From Marsupella aquatica (taxonomy: Eukaryota; Plantae; Marchantiophyta), in NCBI GenBank assembly GCA_973895155.1, contig OZ316895.1, forward strand, positions 5,149,181 to 5,213,180: a DNA stretch of 64,000 nt. The letters are read 5' to 3'. The notes beneath the pieces are model-generated. The model saw only the letters and a list, made by a program, of their open reading frames with translations, had not been told where the DNA came from and did not search any database. Both the position numbers and the translations under genes were made by a program. Positions within the stretch are counted from its first letter, which is position 1. The number at the start of each line of letters is the position of its first letter. Of the stretch, positions 37,901-62,618 are shown one piece after another.

Positions 37901-38291
37901 CTGCAGCTAAGCTGCTTGAGATGAGCAAGATCTTCAGGCAGGCCAAATGAATCAGCCATGATCGGTTCGATCACTTGATTTCCAGGTACTTCAAGACTTT
38001 CCATGCTTGCACATTGTACAGTCCAAAATGGAAACAGAAAACTTATAATTTGCTATGCTTCAATCCTTCATTATATGAGTTCTAGACACACTTGAGGTTG
38101 CCAAAATCATGATCAACATGAAAATTCTGCTTTGGCTTTTTCAAACCACACCTGCTCATATAAAAGGGCCCCATCCTTTGCCTGGCTACTTCTCGCCCAT
38201 GTCCCGTGGTGAGCAGTGTATTTCCTGTAAAAAGTGGAGCCCAAGTCCCTGTTTGCACAAGTCCAATCCTAGCAAAAGTGATTGTATAATG

Positions 38292-38896
38292 TGTCGTGCG
38301 CATACACATCGCTACACAACATACATCGCTTATCACACATATCCAAGCATAGTCACAATCTAACGACACAAACCTAAGAGAATGAGCTACAAATGGAACC
38401 CATGTCCATACATGCCCAAAACCCACAATAATCTTCTTCAATAGTGCAAATCGAACAACGATCGGTGCTAATCCAACAACAATCCCATCCGATGCGATCA
38501 CACATGTATGTCAAGCCCAACGCACCTTGTGCTTCAAGGAATCCACGTTACATGCACACAACCTGGTCAGCCACACCATAGCCACCAAGCTCATGCTCAA
38601 AGGCTCAACATTGAAAGATGAGGCCTTTGAGCCAACACAAGGGGATAACTATCCCTCACACCAACTCAAACTAAACATAGTGCTCATGTAGCACACATAC
38701 AAAACCTCTATACCTAGATAGTACGATATACTTTACTACCACTCTAAATGGTGTGACAGCTGTCGTGCACATACACATCGCTACACAACATACATCGCTT
38801 GTCACACATATCCAAGCATAGTCACAATCTAACGACACAAACCTAAGAGAATGATCTACAAATGGAACCCATGTCCATACATGCCCAAAACCCACA
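38292..38896 (-). repeat. Two 136-bp TG..CA direct repeats (38292-38427, 38761-38896); probable 3' LTR region of the decayed gypsy element
   Basis: Near-identical copies tgtcgtgc...cccaca. On the minus strand a purine tract (aggggggcga) lies immediately before the TG at 38896. Confidence 0.65.
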
Positions 38897-39071
38897 ATCG
38901 CCCCCCTAGCTGGAAGTGAGGTCCCCTAACTCTAGCTAGCCATGAGTTCTAGAAGGTTGATATACACCTTTTTAGGTGTGAAGATCAGGAGGCCGGGTGC
39001 AAGTGAGCCCCATCGATCACCTACCTGCAATCTATATCTTCCATGAGAACACGAATGATAACTAGTCGGCA

Positions 39072-41150: not shown

Positions 41151-41163
41151 GGATCTCTCCGTG

Positions 41164-41205
41164 ACAGCAAACAGCAAACAGTAAACAGCAAACAGCAAAC
41201 AGCAA
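41164..41205 (+). repeat. (ACAGCAA)6 subterminal heptamer repeat
   Basis: Six tandem copies (one is acagtaa) within ~15 bp of the inferred element end. Confidence 0.9.
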
Positions 41206-41906
41206 AACTCATACCAGCAAATGTGCACCCAAAAAAGACACCAAAGGGTATGAAAATATTGTCACATATATTGGACGTGAAGCGGCCATTGAGTACATTT
41301 ATACTAGCGCCGAGCGCTATAAGGAAAACAACCAAATAAAAACCTCTTTGAACTACCGGCTACAGTAATAGCGTCGGGCGCTACTCCAATCCGACACATC
41401 ACAACGTTCTTATTGAGTGTCGTCGTTCTCCATAAACGGGTAAATAAAACAAGGAAAACTAAAGACCAGATCCACAACCACCACTCGACTCTGAGCCCGA
41501 TTCAGAACCGCTACTTTATGATCTATCAGTGGACTCTGCTTCGTCGTCCACATACTTGGATTTTGCAATATCATCTACGAAGTGATTCTGCACAAACTTT
41601 CTATCTGAGCCTCTCCTGAGTCTAAGACCCTTACTCTCCCAAGTAAGCGTCCTGACTGAATCTGCCCGTCGTGCCGCCTTTTCAGCATAAGAGGGGAGAA
41701 CAAATGGCTTCTCCGGGGTCTGTACAACGTTCCTAGAGACATTCCTTCGAAGTTGAAAACGCCTCCGAAGATTCCACTTTGACCTGAGAATTTGAACTGG
41801 AGTTCTTTAGTCGAAGTCGGGAAATCGGGCGAATTTTCTAGACAAAAGGGAGTAGAGGAGTTTTTTGGAAAAAAGTATACAATGAGAGAAAGAAAGCTAA
41901 AGAAAA

Positions 41907-44900
41907 TTACTCTTCTGACTCTTCACTGTCCTCATCTCCAGATCCAAGGTCCACCACATTCTTCGACACCTCATCATCTTTAGATTGCTGAGAAGCATTT
42001 CCACCCTCACCCTCGTCTTCCGAATCAAAATTTAGAATAGCACGGAGCCTGTCCTGCTTCTTACTTCCAGGAATCTTCTTAGGAGGAGTTGGTGCAACCA
42101 CTTCTTTGTTCTGTAAAAGATCGAGGAAGACCTTACCGGAAGTATCAACAAACTCTGGCCGATTTTCCAGCCCAACAACAAAGCGACCAGAATAATCTCC
42201 AGCCACAAACGTACTACCAGAACCTACTGTCCAGTCCATAACGATATCTCCAGGAAGAGTCACCAATTCCAAAATAGTTTGCATGAAACCCACAGGCAAT
42301 CGTGAATTTCCTGCAAATTGGAGCTCAGGAGTCGGGTCATGTCGCGGCAACGAAAACCCAATAATGTTAGTGACGGAAGGGTCTTCATCATTCGATAGTG
42401 GCCGGAACTTGGGGTCTTTCGGGACCCTTCCCTTTGTCGAAATGCGGCAAAATATATTAAGAGTAAGTGTGAATATCTGCAACACAGTTTCCCAATGAAG
42501 GCAGTATAAGAAAACAGACACATATATTAGCGCTTGGCGCTAGTCAACCATTCATCCTTACGAAAGATAAGTGAATTGTAGATATAGCGAATGCTGATAG
42601 TAGCGTCGGGCGCTAGTATGTGCAAGAGGAATTGTTACCTGAGTATCAGATCGGGGCCTATACATTGGTGTAGTCATGACCACATGGTGGGTTGAAATAC
42701 ACTGGAAACACTTAGAATCCTGGCAAGCCGCAATCACTTCAGATACCTGATCATAGTCTCCTCTATGTAAAATTGCAAGTAGGCCATCGTTTGCAAGGAA
42801 CGGCTCCATGGCTCGGAAGAAAGAGCTGGGAATAGTGTAATCCTGAAGGTTCCACTTGGGAACCTTCCGATCAAGAAGTGTTGGTTTTAATCTAGTGGGA
42901 ATGTAGATGAAACCAGCATCCACACCAAAGCCCCTCTCTTTTCCGCCACGCATTACTCCCTTCTCTCTGTCTCCTGACTTTACCAATTCCTTTCCCCAGG
43001 CCTCAACTTTAGTAACCCACATGAGCTTCATCCCCTTGTTAAATACCGAATCGTAAAATTCGTTTAAATTGGACTCCACAAAACAGTGTCTAGAACACCT
43101 TTGCTTAAATTCTCGACATCTCTTTGGAGTCCATAGGAAATAACGTCTCGAGTAGATGATGCTGCTCTGTCCTCACCGGCGCCTCTCTTTTTCTTTTTCT
43201 TCGTGCTAGTTGCGTCAAGAGGGACAATGGATTTGCCAGCACCATCCGGGGTCCCTTGATCCGGGGTTTCTTGAGCTCCAGTGTTTGCCTCCGATGCCTG
43301 AGGAGTTGCATCATTCTTCCCTTCGGCAGCCGGGACCTCCGTGTCGGAATTTCGACCTCCTGTTAGGCACAGAAACTTGAATGAGTCCAACCTTTCAGAC
43401 TAGCGCCAGGCGCTATTAATCAAAGGAATTTCCAAATGAAACTCCTGCAAAAGCAGCGCCAACAAGTAACCAAAAAGCGCTTAGACTACTCACTTTTCTT
43501 GAAGGACCTTGTGGAGTCACTTGGTGCAGCCGACTCATTCTTCGCCTTTGCTCTTGGCTTACGGCTTCGGTCAACGTGCATGACAAGAGACTCACAATTC
43601 TTCTGTAACTCAGATGCAGATTCGTCAACATCAGACTGGAGACCTTGCTTCATTGCAGACACATAGTTGGCAGGGATCTGGGACTTCTGCAACTTCATGA
43701 AGGCATCCTTCTCAGCTTCGTCGAACGGTAAATCCCATTTGTCTGTGTCGAGGTACCACGGACAGTGAAGTCTCTCCCACTCCGACAATGAACGTGGTGG
43801 AAACTTTCCCTCCGCTGGGTACATCAAATAAAGGTCGGCAAGAGCGTCTCCCTCTTCGATAGACACCCATTTCTGAAATGCAGTCAGGTATGCCCACAGA
43901 GTGTCAGGAGATCTAAGCTCCATCCACATGTAAAACCGGTATAGATATCGTTTGGCTCTCTTCCGATTCCGCTCTGTGTAATCTTCCTTGTCCGCATATT
44001 TGGAAGGCCACAAGTTGTTGAAAATTTTTGCCTTGACAAGATCCCCAAAGTTTCTGAATTCATCGAGAATGATCTTAAGCATGGCCTCCATTGACTCACA
44101 CCCAGACTTTGTGAGACGGTCAGCCGGCATCCGGTCAGAAATCTGTTTGAAAGAAGTGTGAAGCATTCCAATTGCAATTCCCTCCACAGAATTCCAAGTA
44201 TGCCATGTATGGCACCACTGCTTCACAGGCTCGTCGTTGACACTTGCAGGATGGAAAAACTGTTTCCGAATCTTGGGAGTGCAGTGGGCTACTAGAAGGG
44301 TGCACCTCAATTTTGGATCCAGGTATGAAACAGCAGTAAACAACCTGGCTCGATCCATTGTGCATACAACTGTGTCTGGCTTCTTCTCCCGTTTGTTCTT
44401 CTCAGTTACGGGATACATCTCAGCACAGGTTCCCAAATAATCTCCAAAATCCGGATGAAGTAAAGGGGTGATCTTCGTCACTTTGATCGACCAATCTTTG
44501 GTCGCCTCCTTCATCATTGCCTCATGCCTCTTTGTGGTCTCCTCTTCTGACCAAGAAGCCCCTTGAGCTTTGGCTAAAGCCATATCAGACTTAAATTGAT
44601 TTGAGTAAGACTTGATTTTGTCCACACACAGAATGTAGATGAGAGCATCCTATGGCATTTTATGTGTAAACCAAGACCCCTTTCTCGTCTTCTTTTGGAT
44701 CGCCTCAAACTTTGCCATGTTCACGCTGTCGATGAGTGGCTTATAGTGATCAAGATCACACGACAAAATTCAGGAAATTCTGTCCGCGTCAAGAATCCAG
44801 GAAGGCTCGACGACTGCTTGTCCAAGCCTGGATGCAATGAAAAGGAATTAGTAGCGCCGGGCGCTAGCAAAAATTGGGGAACGAACACTTTTGCAAAGCA

Positions 44901-45266
44901 TGTTTGGTCCAAAATGAATGACAGGGGTAACAACAGTTAACGAATAGAACTTACTGGTTCAAGGTGTGCATTGCCGCCTCGAGCTCAACTAGCAAACCTC
45001 TGTCACCATTGAAAATGATGCAAATCACACGAGGATGATACTTCAAGTTGTCCGGATTCTCCCTCGTGATGATTGACCATGAGTACAATCGATGATTTCC
45101 GTCAAACACACAAAATATTTTATCTTTTAGAATATGGAATGTTGGGTCCGCATCACACTCTTCCTCAAACTTGTCGTTCTCTGCGACCCAGATTGGATTC
45201 CAAGAGTCCCGGATCTCGCTGGTGCATATCTGAGAAACCCCATCGGCATTCGTAGGTTGAACGTAG
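41907..45266 (-). pseudogene. 3' part of a ParB/Srx-like + N6A/N4C DNA methyltransferase-like gene; exons 45266-44955, 44827-43494, 43359-42639, 42476-41907
   Basis: FCVFDGNHRLYSW (DGNHR at 45089-45103); VDAGFIYIPT (motif IV position, ~42894-42923); RLPVGFMQTILELVTLPGDIVMDWTVGSGSTFVAGDYSGRFVVGLE (SAM-binding motif I). GT-AG introns. Premature stops consistent with CGA>TGA and CAG>TAG, plus frameshifts. Confidence 0.75.
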
Positions 45267-46377
45267 TGTCACTTGCCTCTCCAACGGTTAATACGTGCAA
45301 ACCGCACTTTTCTTCGCTTAAACCGTTGGTATCGTATTACGGGGTCGTGGAGGGACGCTATTTGGATTCTTTTCACACCAGGATGAGTATTTTGGTTTCC
45401 GCTCCCGGAAATGTAGGTTTTGATCAAGTCTACCGACTACCCTCACCCCACAGCTTTTGATCAAGTCCTGCCGACTACCCCACTACACCTTCACTCGGAG
45501 TCACCCAAAGAGTGCTGTCACCACCCCTACTCACAAGGCCGACTCAAACCAAGCAAGTTTCTTCAAATCATAGAACGGGAGAACATAATTCGGAAAGCGA
45601 AAAAGGGAGAAGGAACACACAACAAAAGCCCATCAAGTCAAATGTACAGATCCATATCTCTTGGGAAAAACGATACACATTGCATGAGTAACCCGGCCTC
45701 CTGCCGTCTACTCAACTCCTGCCTCTCCGGACAATGAGTATGGCTCCCCCTCACTACTCTGAACACGCTTTCAAACTCCTCAGGCTCCACTCTATCCCTC
45801 CTTGCTAACTTCACACTGAGTCCCCCTAACTACTTCGGGGCTATCCCCCTAAATACTGAAAAATCACACCAAAGCACCCCTCACAGGGTCACAACGGTGG
45901 CGGCTACCCTAGCGGCGCCGCTAAAACCTTGCACTAAGAGAAATCCTTAAACTGAAGAGGAGCATGCGGCACACACATGCTGCTAAAACCCTAAACCCAA
46001 AACAAGGGGGCCGACGGTGCCTTCGACGGCGCCCCAACAGTACACGTGAACCCTGAAAGTGAGAGGCACCCCAAAATGGCCGAAACTAGGTGCCCTTCCA
46101 AGTGCACACCTGAGCTCACCCCTGGATAGCTCTTCTTTTCCTGCTTCCGAATCACTAAGTCGCTCCCTCAACGGACTTCAGACGCCTGAGTTATGGCCGT
46201 TTCCGTACCGCAAAAACATAAGTTCTCCAGGCCATAACTTGCTCATCCTGGCTCCGTTTGAGGAGCGCCGCCTCTTGTTGGAATCAGCTCCGCGAGCTCA
46301 TCCCAACAAGCCCATGAGTGACCCCCCACTAAAATGTTGGAAATCTGGAGGCCGTACACCCACGTCCGTACGCCTAT

Positions 46378-48234
46378 CTAATCCTCCTCTTCTTCTTCGC
46401 TCTCGGTGCCCGGACTTGTGCCCCGTGAGTGGTCCTCCTCCTCATCACTCACGGGAGTGAGTGCCACCGTACTTTTCTTCTTCTTCGACGGAGTACTCTT
46501 AGTGCTGCTGCTCCCGCGCTTCCTCAAAGCAGCCAAGGCCTGCCACGCCTTGATGTACCCCTCACCAATTGTGTCCTTCCAGAGGGTAGCCTCTTCTCCG
46601 GACCGCAACTCCAACGGTAGAACTTGCCCCGTGGCCATGGGAGTCCCGGGGGTGACAGACCTGGGTGGCATCCCCGTACTGACCTGAGCCTCCCGTAACG
46701 ATTTCCGTACCTCCCGGAGCTTCTTCTCCAAGCTCTTACTCTTCTCCTGACTCTTCTTGGCTCCATCCAACAAGGGTCCATACTTCCCACTAACCTCCTT
46801 CACCACCATCTCGATAGCTTGGGAGATCACATCCGGGGAAAGTGTGGAGCCAGGTGTGCCGGGACTCTTCCGTTTCCCTAGACTCAGGGCCTCACTTCTC
46901 TTCGCTCGTGTCTCAAAGGCTGCCACCTGACTCCGTAGTGCTCCCACCTGGTTCCTCCACTCCATCACTTCTCCAGAATTTTGCTTCTCTTTGGCCAATG
47001 CTTGCCTCAACGCTCCTACTTCTTCTGCTTCCTTGGCCTTGGTGGACAAAGCTCCCTTCAAGTTGGTGATCTCTACGTGAGCTGCATTGATGTGCCTGAC
47101 CTTCTCATGAATGGTCTGCTCCTTGGTCTTGATCACCTCCTTCAGTGACAGGATGCTCTGCTCTAACGTCTCTACTTTGACTGTGGCGTGCTTGAGAGAC
47201 TCCCTCAATGCGTGGACTAGCTTGAGTCCCTCGTGGACTCCCTCTCTGAAATCCCGTAGCTCTGCCAAGTAAACATCCGGAATGTTGTATTCCAGAGGCT
47301 GTTTCGGATCTCCCACGAGTGATTCAAGCCACTCCAATGTGCAATCATCCTCCTGGTTCTCTTCTTCTCTATTATCCTCCCCACCAGCAGACAATGATTC
47401 CTCCGTGAGCTTCCCTAAAACGGTAGTGGCAATACTCCGGATCTCCGTGGTGAGAGATGATCCCGTGTCTTCATGCCCCGGAGAACCAATCAACCCTTCT
47501 GCCCTGGCCAATACAAATGACCCCATCAAATGTACAGCCCCACCTGGTTTCACACTCCCGGGCTCAGCGGCCAATAGCTTCTTCAATCCGTAGCACCACC
47601 ATCCGTACACATGGGCTGGGTAGTTCTTGATGTCCATAGCTACCACGAAATGCTCCTCATTCAGCACTCCGGATTGCACGTTGCCAAGAACCCGTTGATG
47701 CACCTTGGCCAGGAAGCCCTTATACTCAACATCCTTGACAGCAGAAAGAGGGATGGCGGTGGTGGAGGTAGGATTGGTCACCCAAGTGGCCACCATTTTC
47801 AACGTGAGTTCTCCCCTGATATTCCGAGGTATGAATGAGAATTTCTGATTCTCAAGAAACAATAGCTTAGCCAACTCCACATGGGGCACTACACGTTTGA
47901 GACATTCAAAGTAGATTCCCTCCGTTCGGAACTCCATCCCGGCCTCAATGTCCCAGCTCTTCCCTGAAGGGATGGTAATCTCCACCTTCATGAATTCTGT
48001 AAGCCCGGTGGCTTGGAAAATGTTCCGACAATCCTCCATCACCTTGGTGGAGGTCTTGGGATAAATTCGACGAAAAATCTTCCTACCCACCGGTGAGGAA
48101 CCCGCTGCCAATCCCGTGCTCATCATAACTTCTCTCTCTTCCCTTTCCCGTGTAATCCGAGTCTCCACGTAGTCACGGTAAGCAGCCTTGTATCTCCGAA
48201 TGCGTGACGCACTAAACTCTGGTTGATCTAGCAT
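46378..48234 (-). CDS. 618-aa LTR-encoded protein of unknown function (globular N-terminus, coiled coil, basic NLS-like motifs, acidic tail), 3' LTR copy
   Basis: Intact ATG-to-stop ORF, same strand as gag-pol. Heptad-rich segment LRESLKHATVKVETLEQSILSLKEVIK...; GKRKSP and SKKKKS motifs; EEEEED tail. Confidence 0.85.
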   Translation of the reverse strand: MLDQPEFSASRIRRYKAAYRDYVETRITREREEREVMMSTGLAAGSSPVGRKIFRRIYPKTSTKVMEDCRNIFQATGLTEFMKVEITIPSGKSWDIEAGMEFRTEGIYFECLKRVVPHVELAKLLFLENQKFSFIPRNIRGELTLKMVATWVTNPTSTTAIPLSAVKDVEYKGFLAKVHQRVLGNVQSGVLNEEHFVVAMDIKNYPAHVYGWWCYGLKKLLAAEPGSVKPGGAVHLMGSFVLARAEGLIGSPGHEDTGSSLTTEIRSIATTVLGKLTEESLSAGGEDNREEENQEDDCTLEWLESLVGDPKQPLEYNIPDVYLAELRDFREGVHEGLKLVHALRESLKHATVKVETLEQSILSLKEVIKTKEQTIHEKVRHINAAHVEITNLKGALSTKAKEAEEVGALRQALAKEKQNSGEVMEWRNQVGALRSQVAAFETRAKRSEALSLGKRKSPGTPGSTLSPDVISQAIEMVVKEVSGKYGPLLDGAKKSQEKSKSLEKKLREVRKSLREAQVSTGMPPRSVTPGTPMATGQVLPLELRSGEEATLWKDTIGEGYIKAWQALAALRKRGSSSTKSTPSKKKKSTVALTPVSDEEEDHSRGTSPGTESEEEEED

Positions 48235-48655
48235 CCATGCATCCCGAAATCAATTTCTCAATCACCAATCCCGTCACCCGTGGCAATGTCAATTCCCTGG
48301 CCCGAAACAGCCCCCGTAGCCCGATCACTTAAATTCTCTCAATTTCCCGTCACTACTCCGTGCGGCCGCCACTAATGCCTGGAAGAATGACGCCAGCAAG
48401 CCCCACTAATCCACCATGAAAGAGAGAGCTTCAAAAATAATTAGAATCTGGAGAGAGCTTCCGGCAAGAGAGAGAAGAACCCCGTTTTTGCTTTCGGCAA
48501 TGAGAGGGTCGTGCAAAAGGAAGAGGGAAAGAAAAAGGAAGGAAAAAAAAATAGAACCGAAAAAACTCCTGGCGCCTTCGCCATGCGCCCCGGCCCATTT
48601 CTCGGGCCTTACCCTTGCGTCCTCCTGCGCGCGGCCCTATGCAGGGCGCGCGGCC

Positions 48656-48983
48656 ATTCCTCCCGGCTCGCGGGAGGCCCTTCAACTCCCCCCCGCTCGC
48701 GTGATCCTCCCAGCTCGCGGGAGGCCCTTTAACTCCCCCCCGCTCGCGTGATCCTCCCAGCTCGCGGGAGGCCCTTTAACTCCCCCCCGCTCGCGTGATC
48801 CTCCCAGCTCGCGGGAGGCCCTTTAACTCCCCCCCCCCCGCTCGCTTGCGCTCCTTCAGCTCGCGGAGCCTCATTAATTGCCCGGGCACGCAGCCCTATG
48901 GGCTCGCGAGGCAGCCCCTTCAGCTCGCGGAGCCCCATTAATCGCCCGGGCACGCAGCCCTATGGGCTCGCGAGGCAGCCCCT
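48656..48983. repeat. GC-rich tandem repeats in the LTR: ~4 x 47 bp then 2 x 64 bp (also at ~59353-59680)
   Basis: Unit aactcccccccgctcgcgtgatcctcccagctcgcgggaggcccttt with starts at 48684, 48731, 48778 and 48825. The second unit cagctcgcggagcc...gcagcccctt starts at 48857 and 48921. Confidence 0.92.
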
Positions 48984-49309
48984 CTTTCTCTCGGACGGCC
49001 ACTAATGGGACTCGCCCTCCTGAGGAGGGATTTATTTAAAAAAAAACCCCCCCCTCTCCTGACTTTGCAATGGGGGTCTCAACAATAGCTCTTGAAGCAA
49101 AACGGTAAGTCCTATGGGGCTGGTCCTGGCTAGTTTCAAGGTCCCAAAATATTTGCCCACTTAGGTCGCCGCAAATCTTAGAACTATTATGAGAGAAAGA
49201 ATATAAAGTCACCTGGGGCATCATCAACCTATAATGACGGAATTAACTAAAAATTAAAAAATGGCTTATTTACATTGACTATTAACAAGGTATCGGCCTT
49301 TGCAACCAG

Positions 49310-52300: not shown

Positions 52301-55300
52301 TGGAGGTGGATCCTTTGTCACATGGGCCATTATTTCTTCAACGTCAGATTCTTTGTAATGTGACAATAGCTCCTCTCTAAAGTCATCATCCAGGATGTCA
52401 TTCAAAAACTGCTCTCTTTGCTCATCATCAAACATGATCGTGTGGGCTTGCATTTCCACCTCCTCGGGGTGATCCTCTGCCTCCCTATCATGAATCTCTA
52501 GAGGTTCAGCCTCCACAATTTTGCTTCGCTCGTCTTCCATCTCTTCTAGAACAGCGTGCACTTGGCTAACTGATTCCTCTACTGCATGCTCTTGAGTAGC
52601 AACTCCGGGGCCAAAAACATCTTCCTCCGTGAGGTGAGAAATCAGTTTCACCATGTATACTTCATCCTCGTCTTCATCTGAGGTGACCTCTGAATCATAT
52701 TCCTCCTCCATAGTCGTAGTCTCCCCGTGAGGTGACTCCGCTGACCATGGAATAGTGATAGTGGGGATACCAAACCGAAACTGCCGTTTGCCCCAATCAC
52801 TTGTGACCTTGGCCACATACAACCATGGCCTGCCAATTAAAATGGGAAAACCGTACGGCCGAACGGGTCGCATCACCAAATAGTTGAGGGGGAAAGATTT
52901 TCCCCCAATCATTGTTGGAATCTTGGTGAGACACCCCAACGGCACCACCCGTGCACCATCAGCCAACCTCATGGCACGTGCCGGTGGTTCTAACTCTGTA
53001 TACCCCAACCGGTTTGCCGTCTCCTCAGTCATGATGTTGACTCCCGAGCCCCCGTCCACCGGTACAAACCGTATTGCACATCCATTGATGTCCACCGTGA
53101 GTTCTGGGGCACCCAAATCCTCCGTGACCCAGTTGACTTGTATGGGGTCAGCCCCAACTTTGGGTAACCTTCTTCTACGTCTCCTCCTCATGAGAATCTC
53201 CTTGACTTGGCGACGGTATAGGGAGCTATCCCGTAATAGTTGACCAATTGTGGCACTGACTGGGCAATCCAGAATGTCTTGAGCAATGTTGTACGCGGTT
53301 GCAGGAGGTATGGGTGGGATGACCTCTTCTCCCGGTTTCCAACGAACAACCCTCTCCTCCGCTTTCTTTCTGGCCTTTGCCTCCTCCATGTCTTTGTCAA
53401 TGGCCGCTTGCATGGCTTGTGCTTCTAGCTCCTCCAACTGCTTACGTACCTCTTCTCCCACCTTCGGATAGAACAACTTGGGGTTGTCCCGATCAAAGTC
53501 ACTATCCTCCATGGGTGGCACCTCCGGTTCGTGTGAGGTACCCGATGTGGAAGCTTGATGCACCTCCTTGTACTTCTGCTTGAGCTCGGACTTGCCCTTC
53601 TTTTTGCCGGATCGAGTGGAGACTCGGTAACAAGAGTAATGCCTTCTCTCCTCGTCGCTGTCTTCCTCCGGTAGATTCTCAGCATGAGTCCACTCATGAC
53701 TTGGGGGTGAGGGGTTAGCAACTTCAACTTCCGTAGATGTTGCAACAACAACCACCGGTATCTCAACAACTGGAGATACTACAACGACTAGCGGTACCAC
53801 CTCCTCCGTTATGGTGGTCATCCTTTGCTTGGGAATGTTCACTACGGTTTCTTCTCTTCTAGTGATTAGAGGGGTGTCGACTGCTTCCGTGGTGAGAAAG
53901 TTGACGCTAGCTTCTTTCAGAGGAGGTGGCGGCCCCTTCTTCTCTTGTGCCCCAATCGGTTGAGCCTTGAACGCCTCCAAGGTTGGGCAGTGTGGTGCAA
54001 GATGACCCTCCCCCTTGCATAGTTGACACAGCCGGGCAAAATCTCCATTGCCTTGACGGGTGGGCTCTGGGCACACATTAGCGTAGTGGCCCGCCACTCT
54101 ACAATTGTAACAAATAGGGATCTTCCTCACTCCAGGGTACGGTGGTCGATTCCCTGGGTTAGCGTTGGGATAGTTGGAGTATGCGGGTGCTCGGGCGTTT
54201 GTTGAAACTCCATGAATGCTCCGTGGTCCCGGGTTGAGAGGTTGTACACTATACACGTTGGCCTCTGGTGGCTCCTCCATGAAGTACTCTATTGGCCCTT
54301 CCGCTGCATATGAAGGATTTGAGTAGCTTGCCCCCTCAACATCCTCCTCCCGTACTTGGAAAACCTTGGCTGGTTCTCCCGCTGGGCACTCCTTCGGGGC
54401 ATGACCAAACTTCATGCACTTGGTGCACCACACATTGGCTCTCTCCACCGGAACTTTTCTCCTCTCAGGTTTGAGTCCGGCAAAATGTACTTTCAACGCT
54501 TTCATTTGCTCCGTCAGCTCATCATATCTGGCCTCTTGCTCCTTCAGGCGTCTTGCCGTAGACAATGGTGTAACGGCCACCGTGGGTAGTATCACTTCAC
54601 GGTGAGAGGACTTCTTGACTTTCTTTGACAACTTCTTCTTCTTCCTCCTTCGTCTTTCAGCTTCTGACTCCGTAGTGTCTGACTCTGTAGTACTCTCAGA
54701 ATCCTCAGATTCATCACTACTATCTGAATCAGATCCACTCGACTCCTCACTGGAGGAACTGTCAACCGGCTTCAGCTTCTTTCTTCGGCAACGCTTGCTT
54801 GTGGCATCAGCTGCGGTGTATGACTCCGCTGCTGCAATAGCTTCAGCCAATGTGGTTGGCTTGGCTTGACGTACAAAGAACCCCATCTTGCTTGGTAGGG
54901 CAGCCACAAACCAGGCTTGACGCATAGCATCATCGGTACGGGCTTGGATCCGACGTACCAGCTTTTGGAACCTTTGCAAAAACCTCCGTAATGACTCCTT
55001 CTTCTTCATCCTGAGTTGGCCCACCTTTAATAGTGAGGTGGCCTCCACTCCTATGGATCTGAACTCCTTCAAGAAGGCTTGCTTGAACAGAGCCCAATCA
55101 GCTTTCACGTTGGCCAACAACGAAATGAACCATGGACCTGCCTCCCCTCTCATCATTCCAGGAATGATAGTGAGCTTATGTGCAGACTCCCCATTAGCTT
55201 CGGCAATCCCTTCAAACTCCTCAATCCATTCGTCTGGATCATCCTTTGGTCTCCCCTTGAAGGGTACGTACTGAACACGGGTACGTTGTGCAGCTGCCAT

Positions 55301-55708
55301 CGGTGCAGCCGGTGCCTGTATCAACACAGGTGGTAATGGCGCTTGTTGGGCCACCGGTAACAGCACCGATGATAGGTGTGAGATGATTTGTGGCAATGCA
55401 GTGAGCTCTGGGATCAGATTTTGTAACTCAGACTGCACCAACACAAAGGGCTCTCCTTCTTCTCGCTCGTGATCTATGTCTGGCTCTTCGTCTGGGCATA
55501 TGGCCTCATTACATTGAGCCTCTTCCTGTTGCACACCAACTTGTTCTTCCAGCACCAGTGGCAACCTCCTCTCTTCTGCAAGCCGTAAGCGTTCTTCGGC
55601 AGCAACTCGTCGTCTGGTCCCAATCCAAGAGGGCCCCCCTTCTAGCTCTGATCTTGGGGTACGTGTGTGTTGGGGACTTCCTCTACCTCCCCTTCTCCCT
55701 CTCGGCAT
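49310..55708 (-). CDS. Gag-Pol polyprotein, 2132 aa (Gag with 3 CCHC knuckles, protease, RT, RNase H, integrase; no chromodomain)
   Basis: CTKCMKFGHAPKEC, CYNCRVAGHYANVC and CQLCKGEGHLAPHC knuckles; VDGGSGVN protease; CQDFRKLNDATKKDHYPLP, FLDGYSGYNQI and FIDDF (RT); VYVDVSGFCIGAVL (RH); WGVDFIGP, LVSDRGTHF, HPRANGLTER and WMGPY (integrase). Confidence 0.97.
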   Translation of the reverse strand: MPRGRRGGRGSPQHTRTPRSELEGGPSWIGTRRRVAAEERLRLAEERRLPLVLEEQVGVQQEEAQCNEAICPDEEPDIDHEREEGEPFVLVQSELQNLIPELTALPQIISHLSSVLLPVAQQAPLPPVLIQAPAAPMAAAQRTRVQYVPFKGRPKDDPDEWIEEFEGIAEANGESAHKLTIIPGMMRGEAGPWFISLLANVKADWALFKQAFLKEFRSIGVEATSLLKVGQLRMKKKESLRRFLQRFQKLVRRIQARTDDAMRQAWFVAALPSKMGFFVRQAKPTTLAEAIAAAESYTAADATSKRCRRKKLKPVDSSSSEESSGSDSDSSDESEDSESTTESDTTESEAERRRRKKKKLSKKVKKSSHREVILPTVAVTPLSTARRLKEQEARYDELTEQMKALKVHFAGLKPERRKVPVERANVWCTKCMKFGHAPKECPAGEPAKVFQVREEDVEGASYSNPSYAAEGPIEYFMEEPPEANVYSVQPLNPGPRSIHGVSTNARAPAYSNYPNANPGNRPPYPGVRKIPICYNCRVAGHYANVCPEPTRQGNGDFARLCQLCKGEGHLAPHCPTLEAFKAQPIGAQEKKGPPPPLKEASVNFLTTEAVDTPLITRREETVVNIPKQRMTTITEEVVPLVVVVSPVVEIPVVVVATSTEVEVANPSPPSHEWTHAENLPEEDSDEERRHYSCYRVSTRSGKKKGKSELKQKYKEVHQASTSGTSHEPEVPPMEDSDFDRDNPKLFYPKVGEEVRKQLEELEAQAMQAAIDKDMEEAKARKKAEERVVRWKPGEEVIPPIPPATAYNIAQDILDCPVSATIGQLLRDSSLYRRQVKEILMRRRRRRRLPKVGADPIQVNWVTEDLGAPELTVDINGCAIRFVPVDGGSGVNIMTEETANRLGYTELEPPARAMRLADGARVVPLGCLTKIPTMIGGKSFPLNYLVMRPVRPYGFPILIGRPWLYVAKVTSDWGKRQFRFGIPTITIPWSAESPHGETTTMEEEYDSEVTSDEDEDEVYMVKLISHLTEEDVFGPGVATQEHAVEESVSQVHAVLEEMEDERSKIVEAEPLEIHDREAEDHPEEVEMQAHTIMFDDEQREQFLNDILDDDFREELLSHYKESDVEEIMAHVTKDPPPSRPDQEESDAPVYGGMRLARLEETFDEETRNKLDVIRPEQYTKVEVGEGKTLNIGSKLDATEQRTIQELLKEYQDVFAWSHQDLKGVPPEFGEHSIDLMSGARPVRQRQYRLNPKYSLMVKEEIDRLLDAGFIYPVMHSEWVSPIVIVPKKKGPDGKVKIRVCQDFRKLNDATKKDHYPLPFTDIVLDMVAGWEIYSFLDGYSGYNQIWIREEDQLKTAFTTEWGIFAFRRMPFGLCNAPGMFQRLMMNIFHDFLRRFLEIFIDDFAVYGKRVKHPEHLRLTFQRCRETCLKLHPEKCFFGIEEGILLGHKVSARGIEVDREKVAVWVAVSFPKNVKEVRGFLGCVGYYRRFIKDFAKVAMPLTSMLKKGSEFEPTPSRQAAFDELKKRLLEAPVLITPNWNKEFHVYVDVSGFCIGAVLSQLDDDGRDHPIYFASRQLAPAEKNYSPTDREALGIIYACKKYRHYLLGYKVVFHTDHNSLKYMVNKPDLSGRIARWVLLLQEFNYEVRVRSGKSHSNADFFSRIEGASDSQEIDDRFPDEEVFSVNTEATTWYGEILEFLRTARVPSRLGPERAAVFLRKTGPYLLVKGVLHKYGMDGRLRRCLEEAEIRTVMAALHEEEAGGHFARETTARKILDAGYWWPTLFRDVHRYIQRCDPCQRQGKPGPSSRHPLVPILPLAPFEKWGVDFIGPFTPITRRGRKRYIILATDYATKWVEARATAKDDANTTARFLYEQIFTRFGPPLELVSDRGTHFLNHTIERLTENYLISHRKTTPYHPRANGLTERANGIMGKILNKTVSAHKTDWDLKLLAATYAYNLAHKTTTGHSPYFLVFGQHSLVPVEFEVPTIRILTREREGAEESVASRIQQLEQLTETREEALTHTEQEQGKRKSHYDSHLRRVSIEEGDLVLLYDSRFMHFPGKLHTRWMGPYVVDAVYSNGSVQLKTLEGQLLNTRINQERLKKYYTEEEYGARGGASQLREELCDGYPVTGSHT
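49349..49358 (-). other. Polypurine tract
   Basis: Minus strand AAGAGAGGAG, 3 nt before the TG of the 3' LTR. Confidence 0.8.
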
Positions 55709-55925
55709 CCCATTGAGACCTGCATTCCAAACTTACACCAATGTCTCAGAAAGCAATATTTGTAAACATCAACCATCGCACGATGCGTTGTGGTTGACGT
55801 ACAATAACAAAGTAACCAACAAACTTCTCACGTATCAACCGTCGCAAGTTGCGTTGTGGTTGATAGGTTTGAACTCCCAATAGACGTAGCTCCCCTCCTT
55901 CGTGTCGTCAAACAAGAAGAAGGAT

Positions 55926-55943
55926 TCCCCGGCAGCGGCGCCA
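55926..55943 (-). other. Primer-binding site complementary to the 3' end of tRNA-Asp
   Basis: The plus strand reads tccccggcagcggcgcca, matching the plant tRNA-Asp 3' end (TCCCCGGCAACGGCG-CCA) with one mismatch. This is the PBS type of Athila elements. Confidence 0.85.
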
Positions 55944-55963
55944 AAAACAAAAGACCACACTTA

Positions 55964-58900
55964 TGTCACTTGCCTCTCCAACGGTTAATACGTGCAAACC
56001 GCACTTTTCTTCGCTTAAACCGTTGGTATCGTATTACGGGGTCGTGGAGGGACGCTATTTGGATTCTTTTCACACCAGGATGAGTATTTTGGTTTCCGCT
56101 CCCGGAAATGTAGGTTTTGATCAAGTCTACCGACTACCCTCACCCCACAGCTTTTGATCAAGTCCTGCCGACTACCCCACTACACCTTCACTCGGAGTCA
56201 CCCAAAGAGTGCTGTCACCACCCCTACTCACAAGGCCGACTCAAACCAAGCAAGTTTCTTCAAATCATAGAACGGGAGAACACAATTCGGAAAGCGAAAA
56301 AGGGAGAAGGAACACACAACAAAAGCCCATCAAGTCAAATGTACAGATCCATATCTCTTGGGAAAAACGATACACATTGCATGAGTAACCCGGCCTCCTG
56401 CCGTCTACTCAACTCCTGCCTCTCCGGACAATGAGTATGGCTCCCCCTCACTACTCTGAACACGCTTTCAAACTCCTCAGGCTCCACTCTATCCCTCCTT
56501 GCTAACTTCACACTGAGTCCCCCTAACTACTTCGGGGCTATCCCCCTAAATACTGAAAAATCACACCAAAGCACCCCTCACAGGGTCACAACGGTGGCGG
56601 CTACCCTAGCGGCGCCGCTAAAACCTTGCACTAAGAGAAATCCTTAAACTGAAGAGGAGCATGCGGCACACACATGCTGCTAAAACCCTAAACCCAAAAC
56701 AAGGGGGCCGACGGTGCCTTCGACGGCGCCCCAACAGTACACGTGAACCCTGAAAGTGAGAGGCACCCCAAAATGGCCGAAACTAGGTGCCCTTCCAAGT
56801 GCACACCTGAGCTCACCCCTGGATAGCTCTTCTTTTCCTGCTTCCGAATCACTAAGTCGCTCCCTCAACGGACTTCAGACGCCTGAGTTATGGCCGTTTC
56901 CGTACCGCAAAAACATAAGTTCTCCAGGCCATAACTTGCTCATCCTGGCTCCGTTTGAGGAGCGCCGCCTCTTGTTGGAATCAGCTCCGCGAGCTCATCC
57001 CAACAAGCCCATGAGTGACCCCCCACTAAAATGTTGGAAATCTGGAGGCCGTACACCCACGTCCGTACGCCTATCTAATCCTCCTCTTCTTCTTCGCTCT
57101 CGGTGCCCGGACTTGTGCCCCGTGAGTGGTCCTCCTCCTCATCACTCACGGGAGTGAGTGCCACCGTACTTTTCTTCTTCTTCGACGGAGTACTCTTAGT
57201 GCTGCTGCTCCCGCGCTTCCTCAAAGCAGCCAAGGCCTGCCACGCCTTGATGTACCCCTCACCAATTGTGTCCTTCCAGAGGGTAGCCTCTTCTCCGGAC
57301 CGCAACTCCAACGGTAGAACTTGCCCCGTGGCCATGGGAGTCCCGGGGGTGACAGACCTGGGTGGCATCCCCGTACTGACCTGAGCCTCCCGTAACGATT
57401 TCCGTACCTCCCGGAGCTTCTTCTCCAAGCTCTTACTCTTCTCCTGACTCTTCTTGGCTCCATCCAACAAGGGTCCATACTTCCCACTAACCTCCTTCAC
57501 CACCATCTCGATAGCTTGGGAGATCACATCCGGGGAAAGTGTGGAGCCAGGTGTGCCGGGACTCTTCCGTTTCCCTAGACTCAGGGCCTCACTTCTCTTC
57601 GCTCGTGTCTCAAAGGCTGCCACCTGACTCCGTAGTGCTCCCACCTGGTTCCTCCACTCCATCACTTCTCCAGAATTTTGCTTCTCTTTGGCCAATGCTT
57701 GCCTCAACGCTCCTACTTCTTCTGCTTCCTTGGCCTTGGTGGACAAAGCTCCCTTCAAGTTGGTGATCTCTACGTGAGCTGCATTGATGTGCCTGACCTT
57801 CTCATGAATGGTCTGCTCCTTGGTCTTGATCACCTCCTTCAGTGACAGGATGCTCTGCTCTAACGTCTCTACTTTGACTGTGGCGTGCTTGAGAGACTCC
57901 CTCAATGCGTGGACTAGCTTGAGTCCCTCGTGGACTCCCTCTCTGAAATCCCGTAGCTCTGCCAAGTAAACATCCGGAATGTTGTATTCCAGAGGCTGTT
58001 TCGGATCTCCCACGAGTGATTCAAGCCACTCCAATGTGCAATCATCCTCCTGGTTCTCTTCTTCTCTATTATCCTCCCCACCAGCAGACAATGATTCCTC
58101 CGTGAGCTTCCCTAAAACGGTAGTGGCAATACTCCGGATCTCCGTGGTGAGAGATGATCCCGTGTCTTCATGCCCCGGAGAACCAATCAACCCTTCTGCC
58201 CTGGCCAATACAAATGACCCCATCAAATGTACAGCCCCACCTGGTTTCACACTCCCGGGCTCAGCGGCCAATAGCTTCTTCAATCCGTAGCACCACCATC
58301 CGTACACATGGGCTGGGTAGTTCTTGATGTCCATAGCTACCACGAAATGCTCCTCATTCAGCACTCCGGATTGCACGTTGCCAAGAACCCGTTGATGCAC
58401 CTTGGCCAGGAAGCCCTTATACTCAACATCCTTGACAGCAGAAAGAGGGATGGCGGTGGTGGAGGTAGGATTGGTCACCCAAGTGGCCACCATTTTCAAC
58501 GTGAGTTCTCCCCTGATATTCCGAGGTATGAATGAGAATTTCTGATTCTCAAGAAACAATAGCTTAGCCAACTCCACATGGGGCACTACACGTTTGAGAC
58601 ATTCAAAGTAGATTCCCTCCGTTCGGAACTCCATCCCGGCCTCAATGTCCCAGCTCTTCCCTGAAGGGATGGTAATCTCCACCTTCATGAATTCTGTAAG
58701 CCCGGTGGCTTGGAAAATGTTCCGACAATCCTCCATCACCTTGGTGGAGGTCTTGGGATAAATTCGACGAAAAATCTTCCTACCCACCGGTGAGGAACCC
58801 GCTGCCAATCCCGTGCTCATCATAACTTCTCTCTCTTCCCTTTCCCGTGTAATCCGAGTCTCCACGTAGTCACGGTAAGCAGCCTTGTATCTCCGAATGC

Positions 58901-60041
58901 GTGACGCACTAAACTCTGGTTGATCTAGCATCCATGCATCCCGAAATCAATTTCTCAATCACCAATCCCGTCACCCGTGGCAATGTCAATTCCCTGGCCC
59001 GAAACAGCCCCCGTAGCCCGATCACTTAAATTCTCTCAATTTCCCGTCACTACTCCGTGCGGCCGCCACTAATGCCTGGAAGAATGACGCCAGCAAGCCC
59101 CACTAATCCACCATGAAAGAGAGAGCTTCAAAAATAATTAGAATCTGGAGAGAGCTTCCGGCAAGAGAGAGAAGAACCCCGTTTTTGCTTTCGGCAATGA
59201 GAGGGTCGTGCAAAAGGAAGAGGGAAAGAAAAAGGAAGGAAAAAAAAATAGAACCGAAAAAACTCCTGGCGCCTTCGCCATGCGCCCCGGCCCATTTCTC
59301 GGGCCTTACCCTTGCGTCCTCCTGCGCGCGGCCCTATGCAGGGCGCGCGGCCATTCCTCCCGGCTCGCGGGAGGCCCTTCAACTCCCCCCCGCTCGCGTG
59401 ATCCTCCCAGCTCGCGGGAGGCCCTTTAACTCCCCCCCGCTCGCGTGATCCTCCCAGCTCGCGGGAGGCCCTTTAACTCCCCCCCGCTCGCGTGATCCTC
59501 CCAGCTCGCGGGAGGCCCTTTAACTCCCCCCCCCCGCTCGCTTGCGCTCCTTCAGCTCGCGGAGCCTCATTAATTGCCCGGGCACGCAGCCCTATGGGCT
59601 CGCGAGGCAGCCCCTTCAGCTCGCGGAGCCCCATTAATCGCCCGGGCACGCAGCCCTATGGGCTCGCGAGGCAGCCCCTCTTTCTCTCGGACGGCCACTA
59701 ATGGGACTCGCCCTCCTGAGGAGGGATTTATTTAAAAAAAAACCCCCCCCTCTCCTGACTTTGCAATGGGGGTCTCAACAATAGCTCTTGAAGCAAAACG
59801 GTAAGTCCTATGGGGCTGGTCCTGGCTAGTTTCAAGGTCCCAAAATATTTGCCCACTTAGGTCGCCGCAAATCTTAGAACTATTATGAGAGAAAGAATAT
59901 AAAGTCACCTGGGGCATCATCAACCTATAATGACGGAATTAACTAAAAATTAAAAAATGGCTTATTTACATTGACTATTAACAAGGTATCGGCCTTTGCA
60001 ACCAGTTATGTGTGACTTCCCGTGACGGGGTACCCGTCACA
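55964..60041 (-). repeat. 5' LTR (4078 bp)
   Basis: Near-identical to 45267-49345 and followed on the minus strand by the PBS. Confidence 0.97.
57075..58931 (-). CDS. 618-aa LTR-encoded protein, 5' LTR copy
   Basis: Translation identical to 46378-48234. Confidence 0.85.
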   Translation of the reverse strand: MLDQPEFSASRIRRYKAAYRDYVETRITREREEREVMMSTGLAAGSSPVGRKIFRRIYPKTSTKVMEDCRNIFQATGLTEFMKVEITIPSGKSWDIEAGMEFRTEGIYFECLKRVVPHVELAKLLFLENQKFSFIPRNIRGELTLKMVATWVTNPTSTTAIPLSAVKDVEYKGFLAKVHQRVLGNVQSGVLNEEHFVVAMDIKNYPAHVYGWWCYGLKKLLAAEPGSVKPGGAVHLMGSFVLARAEGLIGSPGHEDTGSSLTTEIRSIATTVLGKLTEESLSAGGEDNREEENQEDDCTLEWLESLVGDPKQPLEYNIPDVYLAELRDFREGVHEGLKLVHALRESLKHATVKVETLEQSILSLKEVIKTKEQTIHEKVRHINAAHVEITNLKGALSTKAKEAEEVGALRQALAKEKQNSGEVMEWRNQVGALRSQVAAFETRAKRSEALSLGKRKSPGTPGSTLSPDVISQAIEMVVKEVSGKYGPLLDGAKKSQEKSKSLEKKLREVRKSLREAQVSTGMPPRSVTPGTPMATGQVLPLELRSGEEATLWKDTIGEGYIKAWQALAALRKRGSSSTKSTPSKKKKSTVALTPVSDEEEDHSRGTSPGTESEEEEED

Positions 60042-60046
60042 CGTAG

Positions 60047-60447
60047 AAAGGCATCCCAATGCGCGAGTTGTACCCGGTGACACGGAATGATTCTTTCAAC
60101 TTCTCAATCGATGCACTTTCTTTCTGTAAGGTTTGAACAACCTCCATGGGGAGCAATCTACAAAGAGGAATTCGAGGTGGCTCCTTATCGAATCCTCAAA
60201 AATCCTTCCCGAATGACAATGCGTGCTTTGATATTACCTCGTCTATCAATAAGCCTATGTCACTGACTTCACCCATGGAGACGTCCTTAGGGTCCATTCT
60301 CCCTCTCCTCGACCTCGGGAAGGGCTGTGCAGATTCAGCTTCGGAAGTCGATAGGGACGCAGTCGATCGAGTGACGCGACGGGTGTATACTGAACCAGCG
60401 AATGAAGACTGAGAGGACTCAGAATGACCACCATCAGCCTCCCCCAT
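60047..60447 (-). pseudogene. 5' part of the ParB-MTase-like gene, upstream of the LTR insertion
   Basis: MGEADGG... then an in-frame stop at 60196, then PPRIPLCRLLPMEVVQTLQKESASIEKLKESFRVTGY...PFY|V, which continues in frame across the TSD into 45261 and below. Confidence 0.7.
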
Positions 60448-60531
60448 TCTCGTATCACCCAGCCAAAAGTTGCCATGGAGAGCGACTCAACCAAAGGCAC
60501 TGTCGGATGCGCCGTGCAGTTCTTGTCACGA

Positions 60532-62015
60532 TCACGTCTCAAAATGTATGGGACCAATAAAGGACGCACACACGCACTTGACAAACTCGTACAGTCCGAG
60601 GTCTGAGCGCGTAGACAGACTAAATTATCCCAAACGAGCGATCTCCACCTCGTATTAAGACACCGATACATTGGAACCAGCCATTCGATTACAACGGTCC
60701 CAAGTATAGATGGCATTCTCCGATTGGACTTTCATCCCAGACAAAAGCAAAAAGGGTTCCGTGAACCTCAATCTACTATAATATTACCGTTGGAAAGTGA
60801 CCGTTGGAACCACATCAATGTCGGTAGTTGTGGATAGCGCTAGGCGCTATTATACAACATACTTTCAAATGTATCTGAAAAACCGTCAATGTAGCTTTGG
60901 ACAGTACTATCAACACAAGTGTCTATAAATTTTCCAATTTTGTGCAGGAGTCGACAAGCCAACTTTAGTAGCGCTCGGCGCTAGTATCCAAATAAATGAT
61001 GAAATCGGAGTCCAATGACAACAAACATGACCACATGAACCCATTCATTAAACGAATATTCCAATGAATTACAATAGCGCCTGGCGCTATTAAAATGCAC
61101 ATCAATTGAACAGACTTTGTTGAAATAAAAGTAAAAATAACTCCGAACGGGTCTGACTTGTGATTCCTTTCATTAATAGCGCCCAACGCTATCAAAAACA
61201 CTTCAGAGATAAGACATGTCACGACAGTGTTACGGACACTTTGTTTGTCATAATAGCGCCGAACGCTAGTAAAAACATTGACAGCAAACGAGTGTTTACG
61301 GCCATTTCAAAGAAATAGATCAGTTTCGCATTCAGAAATACAATGCAAACACGGGAGTAGAACCCAAAATTAAAGCTTGGTCTTCTGAATTCAAAAGCAT
61401 TGACACCGGGGTAAAAACGAACGGTTGTGTCGTTCATATACAAAATGTTACAATACACTAGAAATCCGGCATACGAGGAAGGAACGGTATGGGTTTTGTA
61501 ACGGAAAAAAACGAGTGGAATTAGATCCTATCAACCTCGATGGATCCTCAAGTCTCTCCAGCACTCGAATGAGACGCTTTGACACCGGGAAATCAGTCTT
61601 CCCACCAACTTGGCTTGTACCCATCAGAGTCGTCATTCAAGTCGCTCGATCCATACCACGCAAATCCTTGCCTGCTCGGTGATGAGTCCCCACTCAAAGA
61701 ACGATCACTCTTAGTGGATGAAGAAGATACAGAGACTCCCGTGCAGATAGTGTCGGCTCTTGGATGGCCGACTGAAGCATGGGCGATATCCCTAGCGGGA
61801 ATAGAAGTCGGGCCGCTCGCATTTGGCCGACTGGATCCTTCGCTGCGTCCCACAGTTGGGGCATTCTTCGTCTTTGAGATGAGTTTCCCCTTCTTCGAGA
61901 TTGGAACCGTCGTCCTCTTGTCCCGAGGTGGTAAGCTATTTGATGCAGGGGTCTCCCGGTTGGTGTCACTCGGAACAAGTGCCTCCTCCTTTGCCTTCCC
62001 CCGTGGAGGTGCCAT
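60532..62015 (-). pseudogene. Decayed two-exon accessory gene of unknown function (MAPPRGKAKEE...), intron ~61474-60770
   Basis: Low-complexity basic/Ser-rich N-terminus with an apparent frameshift near 61600 and a GTATGC donor at 61474. The downstream exon-like segment has TAA stops. It could instead be the true 5' end of the ParB-MTase gene. Confidence 0.4.
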
Positions 62016-62474
62016 TGAAAGTGAACTAGGACGAGAACAAGAAGCGCGAACAAGAACGTGAAGGAGGACAACAACGTGAACTAGGACGAGAATGAGAAAT
62101 GAGGACGAGAAGGAGAACAAGAACGTGCACGAAAGCCAAAAAGAACAACTGGGCCCGAATGCGAGAACGGGAACCACGCGCCCAAAAGATGAGCCACAAT
62201 TGCGACTCAGTAAAGAATGGCTTGACAATGAGGACATTGGAGGAGAACGACTAGATATAAGGAGAGTTTGCACTTGGTCCTGGCTGCCCACTTTGAAGAG
62301 GACCCTCTGATATAACTTTCAGGGATGCTTCCTCTCTGACACATTTGGACCCGGACGGATCGGATTCGCGAAGATCCAGTGGAGATCTTAAAGTGTGCCA
62401 ACTTAATGACTCGTACTGTATCGCATTATCGTACTTATCCTTCCATTGAATGTTTTCAAGTCCATTGAAATAGG

Positions 62475-62618
62475 TAGCGCCAGGCGCTATTATTTATTGC
62501 CTTCGTACTCCTCACCCAAGAATGTTTGCACCCAGAGGTAGCGCCAGGCGCTATTATTATTGGCATTCATAGTCCTCACCCAAGGGTGTTTTACACATAG
62601 AGATAGCGCCAGGCGCTA
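62475..62618. promoter_or_regulatory. Three ~64-bp tandem units, each carrying TAGCGCCAGGCGCTA, between the divergent genes
   Basis: Palindromes at 62475, 62539 and 62604; the two spacers share tcctcacccaag. A regulatory role is inferred from position. Confidence 0.6.

Follow-up and report, generated by a model that had tools for sequence, protein, structure and literature searches.

Palindromic sites dispersed through the non-coding DNA of a liverwort transposon as putative binding sites of its own ParB-like protein

In VANDAL transposons, the protein VANC21 binds motifs in introns and spacers, and VANC removes methylation (PMC5735166). Red-algal Plavaka, Mutator and Zisupton elements carry PAG3, an accessory protein homologous to ParB whose gene has arrays of inverted repeats beside it and which has been proposed to bind and modify its own element, and the same elements carry PAG2, a separate PF01555 methylase gene (bioRxiv 10.1101/2025.02.11.637652). 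Among bacterial proteins of the ParB family, KorB represses, BisD activates and VirB relieves silencing from a parS-like site (PMC13768133). Here we describe a 64,000-nt stretch of the genome of the liverwort Marsupella aquatica (contig OZ316895.1, positions 5,149,181 to 5,213,180), referred to below as the window, which contains a multicopy DNA transposon, probably Mutator-like, whose main cargo gene encodes a ParB-like protein fused to a methyltransferase-like domain and whose non-coding DNA holds 14 copies of a palindromic site.

Sequence comparison, structure modelling and analogy incline us, with some reservation, to regard these palindromes as putative binding sites through which the ParB-like protein would recognise and regulate its own element. 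The original prediction, made from the letters of the window alone, had presented the locus as a candidate new system; this was overstated, as a ParB-domain accessory gene with inverted repeats of its own had already been proposed for the red-algal transposons. A review of eukaryotic adenine methylases reports fusions of ParB with helix-turn-helix (HTH) domains in chlorophytes and chytrids and, in its accessible part, no land-plant transposon of this kind (PMC4738411), and the accessible part of a preprint on N4-methylcytosine (4mC) in Marchantia does not mention ParB. No description of the family was found in the literature on ParB in plant, liverwort or Mutator-like transposons, a search that left most subscription papers outside.

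Placement and architecture of the palindromic sites

When the window was scanned with the pattern TAGCGYYNRRCGCTA, 14 exact matches were obtained, all at the coordinates of the original prediction, and the same count in 100 shuffles gave 0. All 14 lie within the 8,071 bases of the element and none in the other 55,929 bases, in agreement with the earlier statement that the exons, the long terminal repeat (LTR) retrotransposon inserted in the element and the 41 kb to its left are free of them. Non-coding DNA represents 38% of the element and holds all of the sites (p about 1.5e-6, or 2.7e-5 when the sites are counted as 11 independent events). A relaxed scan of the window, in which one mismatch was tolerated and the 3-base spacer could be any sequence, revealed no further site and therefore no decayed relics.

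Two sites (starts 41305 and 41369, 64 bp apart; 41305..41383) lie near the left end of the element; the claim that they are subterminal holds only relative to the inferred left end near 41148, whereas the right end is outside the window. As had been proposed, each of the three predicted GT-AG introns of the ParB-like gene, which is encoded on the minus strand, contains a site: that at 44852 in intron 1 (44828..44954, 127 nt), that at 43401 in intron 2 (43360..43493, 134 nt) and those at 42528 and 42601 in intron 3 (42477..42638, 162 nt). Diverged contigs stop aligning at 44829-44830, within intron 1, many homologous open reading frames (ORFs) end at intron 2, and the homologue P0099 ends at the same donor as exon 3. 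Five more sites (60835, 60969, 61075, 61177 and 61254; 60835..61268) form a cluster between an accessory ORF and the ParB-like gene, and the remaining three (62475, 62539 and 62604; 62475..62618) belong to a 64-bp tandem repeat in the interval that separates the divergent genes, where they had been reported. The cluster of five had been assigned to an intron of the accessory gene, but the accessory ORF stops at 61593 and no frame downstream of this position looks coding. Since one set of diverged contigs stops aligning at that stop codon, the cluster is probably intergenic or in an untranslated region, perhaps in an intron there, rather than within a coding intron. The segment 60448-60771 was also considered as coding and rejected, as synonymous changes are not favoured in any of its frames and five stops interrupt the ParB frame. 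Segments that bear sites are richer in CpG, which was given no weight because the sites themselves supply many of these CpGs, and no convincing helical phasing was found in the site spacings.

The existence of clusters upstream of both main genes, and a non-coding placement that would suit any cis-acting element, are also what could be expected if a host transcription or chromatin factor bound the sites and were exploited by the transposon. However, no site lies near the host genes in the 41 kb to the left even when one mismatch is allowed, an invariant dyad of 15 bp is long for a host factor, and the element encodes candidate binders of its own, so we give this explanation very little weight.

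The alignment between the flanks of different sites fades beyond about 20 bases, except for the trio at 62475-62618. Thus, the earlier claim that the flanks are mostly unrelated stands, the exception being these three sites, which share the tandem repeat. This repeat, together with two other pairs of sites spaced by 64 and 73 bp, could suggest that a tiny repeat or local duplication left the sites behind as neutral relics, although the absence of partly decayed copies, the unrelated flanks and the retention of sites in diverged relatives make this the least probable of the explanations considered.

Regarding the architecture of the site, the first five bases are invariant in the 28 half-sites, positions 6 and 7 are either C or T, and the centre is free; outwards, the consensus extends as T-A-(A/C/G), in 20 and 21 of the 28 half-sites. 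As positions 6 and 7 vary independently between the halves, the transcribed strand of the sites at 41369 and 42601 has C-A mismatches, and in 11 of the 14 sites there is no extra base pair outside the core. Because the halves vary independently and the outer consensus gives no longer stems, we infer a dyad that is recognised in double-stranded DNA by a dimeric protein, and not a hairpin. That the palindromes work as RNA hairpins or splicing signals could be argued from the presence of a site in all three introns and from a branch-point-like CTAAT that overlaps or follows two of them; nevertheless, the distances from site to acceptor differ (24, 41, 51 and 124 nt), 10 of the 14 sites are outside these introns, and to the mismatches mentioned above is added the lack of any Rfam match, so such a role is hardly to be expected.

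The stretch is contained in six runs from four studies; three of the runs have 255-705 aligned contigs and a fourth has 54, with similarities that range from 99% down to below 90%. A library-wide search with exon 2 of the ParB-like gene yielded 94 homologues, and among 30 homologue clusters that were looked up ten have an organism name, seven Riccia sorocarpa, a species with several paralogues, and three Calypogeia fissa. As hundreds of contigs align per run and Riccia sorocarpa has paralogues, the element can be considered multicopy and dispersed. Diverged contigs pass from aligned sequence to a site across letters unrelated to the window; a contig of X5 reaches the site after 24 such letters, the same spacing as at window site 60835, and several loose contig ends start at a site or within about ten bases of one.

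Signs of the site were also detected in the tails of homologous proteins: when introns are disregarded in gene calling, the called protein runs on into the intron and its tail shows intron sequence. In a set of 96 non-redundant homologues (after removal of 11 cluster duplicates and two proteins derived from the window), P0011/P0104, which end in LLAPGAS, and the transposase P0001, which ends in IASARR-stop, translate the site immediately after a position resembling a splice donor, in spite of identities as low as 35-40% for the P0011 cluster and 35% for P0001. Tails that spell the site were two of 96, a number reached in 27 of 5000 shuffles, and none was found in 18,325 other residues. The proposal that the motif is maintained for its own sake gains from both observations, that is, from the sites kept among unrelated flanks in diverged relatives and from those in the tails. 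A further pattern, noticed afterwards, is the MLAxAL tail of P0024, P0025 and P0066 (three such tails were reached in none of 5000 shuffles), all of them within a single clade of nine rows with 98/96 support, six rows of which do not have it. Such tails may correspond to a 14-bp variant of the dyad, one base shorter, in this clade; this peptide-level, post hoc observation is a lead for co-variation of site and protein and not a result.

The ParB-like protein and its methyltransferase-like domain

The main cargo gene runs on the minus strand from 60447 to 41907 and has four exons. The upstream part of exon 1 (60042..60447) provides the start codon, a disordered N-terminus and the sequence IPLCRL that opens the ParB-like domain; its downstream part (44955..45261), assigned by profile and embedding searches, continues this N-terminal domain, including DGNHR. 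Exon 2 (43494..44827) encodes a helical domain whose first half resembles a ParB-type DNA-binding domain with insertions. Exon 3 (42639..43359) encodes a low-complexity linker followed by the N-terminal half of the methyltransferase-like domain, with the slot for motif IV, and exon 4 (41907..42476) the half corresponding to the S-adenosylmethionine (SAM)-binding part of a beta-class N4/N6 methyltransferase fold, an acidic tail and the stop codon.

The N-terminal domain (IPLCRL ... DGNHR) is shared by Riccia homologues, in which it is likewise joined to the exon-2 domain. In the embedding search this domain reached an Atlas score of 0.92 to a cluster with 32% ParB_N members, its library matches were weak (PHROG ParB-like, E=0.15; DGQHR, E=0.048), and hhalign against a profile built from 22 bacterial ParB proteins gave E=0.013, above all 30 shuffles. 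The GxxR core of the GERR patch of ParB is retained. A Pfam scan of the parts of the gene produced no ParB family match for the N-terminal domain, sequence searches of solved structures gave no ParB match, and the three matches obtained by tblastn against plasmids were at chance level. The evidence for a ParB-like N-terminal domain is thus weak and concordant. The nearest Atlas clusters (0.95) to the same domain of the Riccia homologue P0085 (residues 165-335) have DUF3723 members; no paper naming DUF3723 and ParB together was found in the literature searched.

That a ParB-type DNA-binding domain follows is fairly likely from modelling. When the structure model of P0085, confident over residues 330-555, was used in a fold search against 48,161 chains, DNA-binding domains of the ParB family appeared at ranks 8 (6s6h, ParB on parS; Z 4.8, rmsd 6.9, 125 aligned), 19 (KorB, 8qa8; Z 4.4, rmsd 4.0, 101 aligned) and 20 (Spo0J, 1vz0; Z 4.3, rmsd 3.0, 94 aligned), each alignment beginning at the end of the P0085 N-terminal domain. 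By sequence, exon 2 matched no Pfam family at cut-off, and the Atlas search gave only unnamed clusters of low recognition.

Regarding the methyltransferase-like domain, exon 4 matched PF01555 with E=6.5e-8 over profile positions 164-219 of 221, with the SAM-binding motif I half present; a PHROG match (E=3.4e-8) was also obtained, and the top matches in the Protein Data Bank (PDB) were DpnA, M.PvuII, CcrM and M.MboII. The catalytic motif IV of beta-class methyltransferases is (D/N/S)PP(Y/F/W). In its slot the window reads YIPT, and the four aligned homologues YLPT, DLPT, DMPS or something unrecognisable, so none of the five sequences has the motif. As the catalytic slot is degenerate in all five, methyl transfer by the cargo protein is unlikely. 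Of the earlier interpretation, the ParB-like character of the protein is supported, with a DNA-binding domain weakly indicated by the fold search, whereas self-marking by methylation is not supported. One could still imagine an active methyltransferase, guided by the ParB-like domain, that places 4mC or N6-methyladenine (6mA) at or near the sites as a self mark: the SAM-binding half is good enough for the Pfam match, the 4mC enzyme M.PvuII is among the beta-class relatives, the motif IV slot retains an aspartate and a proline in two Riccia homologues, liverworts use 4mC and red-algal transposons carry PF01555 genes. Nonetheless, with the motif absent from every aligned sequence, and the window and P0099 lacking even its first residue, we regard this as improbable.

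Several observations weigh against the sites being bound by the ParB-like protein. On the protein side, one shuffle of the N-terminal domain reached 19.5 on the ParB profile compared to the 19.8 observed, and the GERR patch and EN of ParB read DGNHR and HN/HT, departing from the canonical CTP-binding motifs. The protein modelled was the Riccia homologue and not that of the window, its N-terminal domain was poor (pLDDT under 50), and Z values of 4.3-4.8 are within the stated noise of the tool for helical models. Foldseek with the same model listed no ParB and gave no match of E<0.001 in the PDB or viral libraries, and the DNA-binding domain was not significant against the ParB profile (10.2, with shuffles at 7-18, and 9.7-10.0 with the insertions removed). 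On the side of the sites, none of the best-supported 80 differences listed that set this copy apart from its relatives touches a site (683 and 359 further rows exist), which is weak support for maintenance (p=0.046 among non-coding differences and 0.12 for CpG loss). The tail evidence is peptide and not DNA, and 94 of the 96 tails are without the site, most of them stopping before the intron. Moreover, the findings do not tell activation from repression.

If the palindromes are nonetheless the targets of the ParB-like cargo protein, this would dock on the dyads and so recognise and regulate the copies of its own element, with anti-silencing as the preferred outcome by analogy only. Sites would be kept in introns and spacers, where they are cost-free and yet succeed one another along the element at distances no greater than about 1.5 kb, and the copy of the window, whose ParB-like gene is dead, would depend on protein from intact copies. 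The element would then represent a land-plant case made from a bacterial protein family, and its sharply defined 15-bp site and candidate binder would open to direct testing in liverworts the question of how transposons with cargo distinguish self from host.

A bolder form of the proposal, which we hold to be doubtful, is a eukaryotic ParB/parS system in which a nucleotide-dependent sliding clamp loads at the intronic dyads, coats the element and shields it from silencing with a dead methyltransferase domain, the 15- and 14-bp sites having changed together with the protein. If that were true, and the same domain were present on Starships (DUF3723) and PAG3 elements, it would represent a general self-recognition device of large eukaryotic transposons. 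A ParB-type clamp working on eukaryotic chromatin would be surprising and possibly a sequence-directed tool, and the resemblance to DUF3723 suggests a hypothesis for a core gene of Starships that is so far uncharacterised.

The transposase, the state of this copy and its surroundings

Divergent from the ParB-like gene, the plus strand encodes the first 402 codons of a Cys/His-rich protein (62794..64000) that continues past the end of the window and shows 35% identity to P0001 (E=4e-71). Further along, P0001 is predicted to form a DDE-like core rich in strands, with two aspartates located on such strands and the sequence D-x-x-H, a motif of Mutator-type transposases. Foldseek of its model (mean pLDDT 37) listed the ISCth4 transposase at ranks 7, 13 and 19 with weak E values (0.033-0.12); P0001 had no match in Pfam, and a wide fold search of this poor model was uninformative. 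From this sequence and model evidence, the gene probably encodes a Mutator-like transposase. A conserved Cys/His pattern in its N-terminal part had been labelled a GCM domain; neither Pfam nor the PDB matched the region to GCM, and the model is unusable there, leaving the label without database support.

This zinc domain is itself a candidate for binding the sites, for cognate activation or as part of a transpososome, the ParB-like gene then being independent cargo. An intron of the homologue P0001 itself appears to hold a site, two sites of the window lie close to the left end and another three upstream of the transposase gene, and the AtMu1 transposase activates cognate copies sequence-specifically. 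In contrast, 12 of the 14 sites are internal, including introns kilobases away from the end, a free-centred dyad of such length suits a dimeric helix-turn-helix protein such as KorB, and the 14-bp lead clusters on the tree of the ParB-like protein. Binding by the transposase is, in our view, the main alternative, although an unlikely one.

The accessory ORF (61593..62015, minus strand) looks coding and would give a low-complexity protein of 140 aa with no Pfam family at cut-off; six of nine listed differences are synonymous (p=0.01), and relatives show in-frame insertions and deletions. Its C-terminus is an aromatic-acidic tail, SWWED, located where diverged copies stop aligning and possibly a short interaction motif.

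In this copy, exon 1 is split by a recently inserted Gypsy LTR retrotransposon (45267..60041, minus strand), site-free and outside the system, with LTRs of 4,079 bp that differ by one mismatch and one gap (99.95% identical) and the target-site duplication CGTAG. One premature stop is present in the upstream part of exon 1 and two in exon 2, and there is a frameshift near 43106 in exon 3, where all the covering contigs (X2) have an extra base. Because of the LTR insertion, the three premature stops and the frameshift, the ParB-like gene of the window is dead. Relatives have a sense codon at one of the stops as well as the base missing at the frameshift. Of 27 listed exon differences in the main gene, 11 are synonymous (30 of the 40 listed rows were used, and 10 from the 3' non-coding part left out). 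Each LTR (45267-49345 and 55964-60041) contains an intact ORF of 623 aa (46378-48249 and 57075-58946) that includes a coiled-coil region but lacks any known domain, an unusual location for an ORF, and also GC-rich tandem repeats of 47 and 64 bp.

The left end of the transposon (41148..41215), inferred from the sequence and containing (ACAGCAA)x6, adjoins a decayed Gypsy reverse transcriptase/RNase H frame. The decayed Gypsy pol region at 38000-41147 is the apparent insertion target of the DNA transposon, which makes three nested layers. The left 38 kb of the window contain ordinary plant genes; a 36-bp tandem array of about 17.6 copies lies between two of these host genes (27091-27723), and dispersed or inverted short repeats common to 7771-8517 and 9399-9517 and to 34693-34899 and 36932-37040 are probably small non-autonomous elements.

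Word-index searches for longer homologues gave none for exon 2 and one each for the transposase and the methylase part. A metagenome locus search with exon 2 found nothing, and with the alignment a single exon-only contig of 1,053 bp (L003), site-free. Two protein scans of viral contigs with the element proteins found nothing. A paired-site scan of 2.9 million viral contigs had one match, an unrelated phage-satellite-like contig (L001) in which three exact copies of the dyad, extended to GTAGCG..CGCTAC, are found at 5001-5090, where a small gene ends, and may mark an origin; inspection of this contig by eye revealed no ORF for a ParB or a methylase.

Comparison with known systems

The element resembles VANDAL in being probably Mutator-like and in that its short motif is limited to intronic, intergenic and terminal non-coding DNA (PMC5735166), and the motifs of related VANDAL families differ, as the 14-bp lead may hint here. 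However, the motifs of VANC, 8-9 bp in length, lack palindromic symmetry and arise through tandem repetition, compared to a 15-bp dyad with mostly unrelated flanks; the liverwort protein is ParB-like, and the likeness stops short of the demethylation seen with VANC. The accessory ORF and exon 2, considered as possible VANC homologues, matched no Pfam family at cut-off, with no direct comparison to VANC made. With the mobile-element proteins KorB, VirB and BisD, the system shares a ParB-like protein and a free-centred palindrome (the KorB operator is TTTAGC-G/C-GCTAAA; PMC13768133), but it is eukaryotic, has large insertions, DGNHR in place of GERR and a methylase-like fusion, and no ParA was seen. 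Starship DUF3723 proteins are likewise conserved cargo of eukaryotic transposons (bioRxiv 10.1101/2021.12.13.472469), the link being an Atlas score without alignment, whereas Starships use a tyrosine recombinase, and the accessible part of that source describes neither sites nor a methylase fusion. Regarding the beta-class methyltransferases (M.PvuII, DpnA, CcrM and the Marchantia MpDN4MT1), the motif order and the SAM-binding half are alike, but the catalytic motif of the liverwort protein is degenerate, while MpDN4MT1 is by description a host gene with TSPPY.

The closest parallel is that of PAG3, compared here by its published description and not by sequence: in both cases a eukaryotic DNA transposon encodes a ParB-like accessory protein and has inverted repeats of its own and a PF01555 domain. 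They differ in that the ParB domain of PAG3 is fused to a 2OG-oxygenase and that of the liverwort protein to a probably inactive methylase-like domain, in that the red-algal methylase is a separate gene with SET, and in that the red-algal repeats form tandem arrays beside the gene, compared to dispersed sites of which only three of 14 are in a tandem repeat. Therefore, what is new here is a land-plant fusion of ParB-like and methylase-like domains with singly dispersed dyads, the general idea having precedents in VANDAL/VANC and PAG3.

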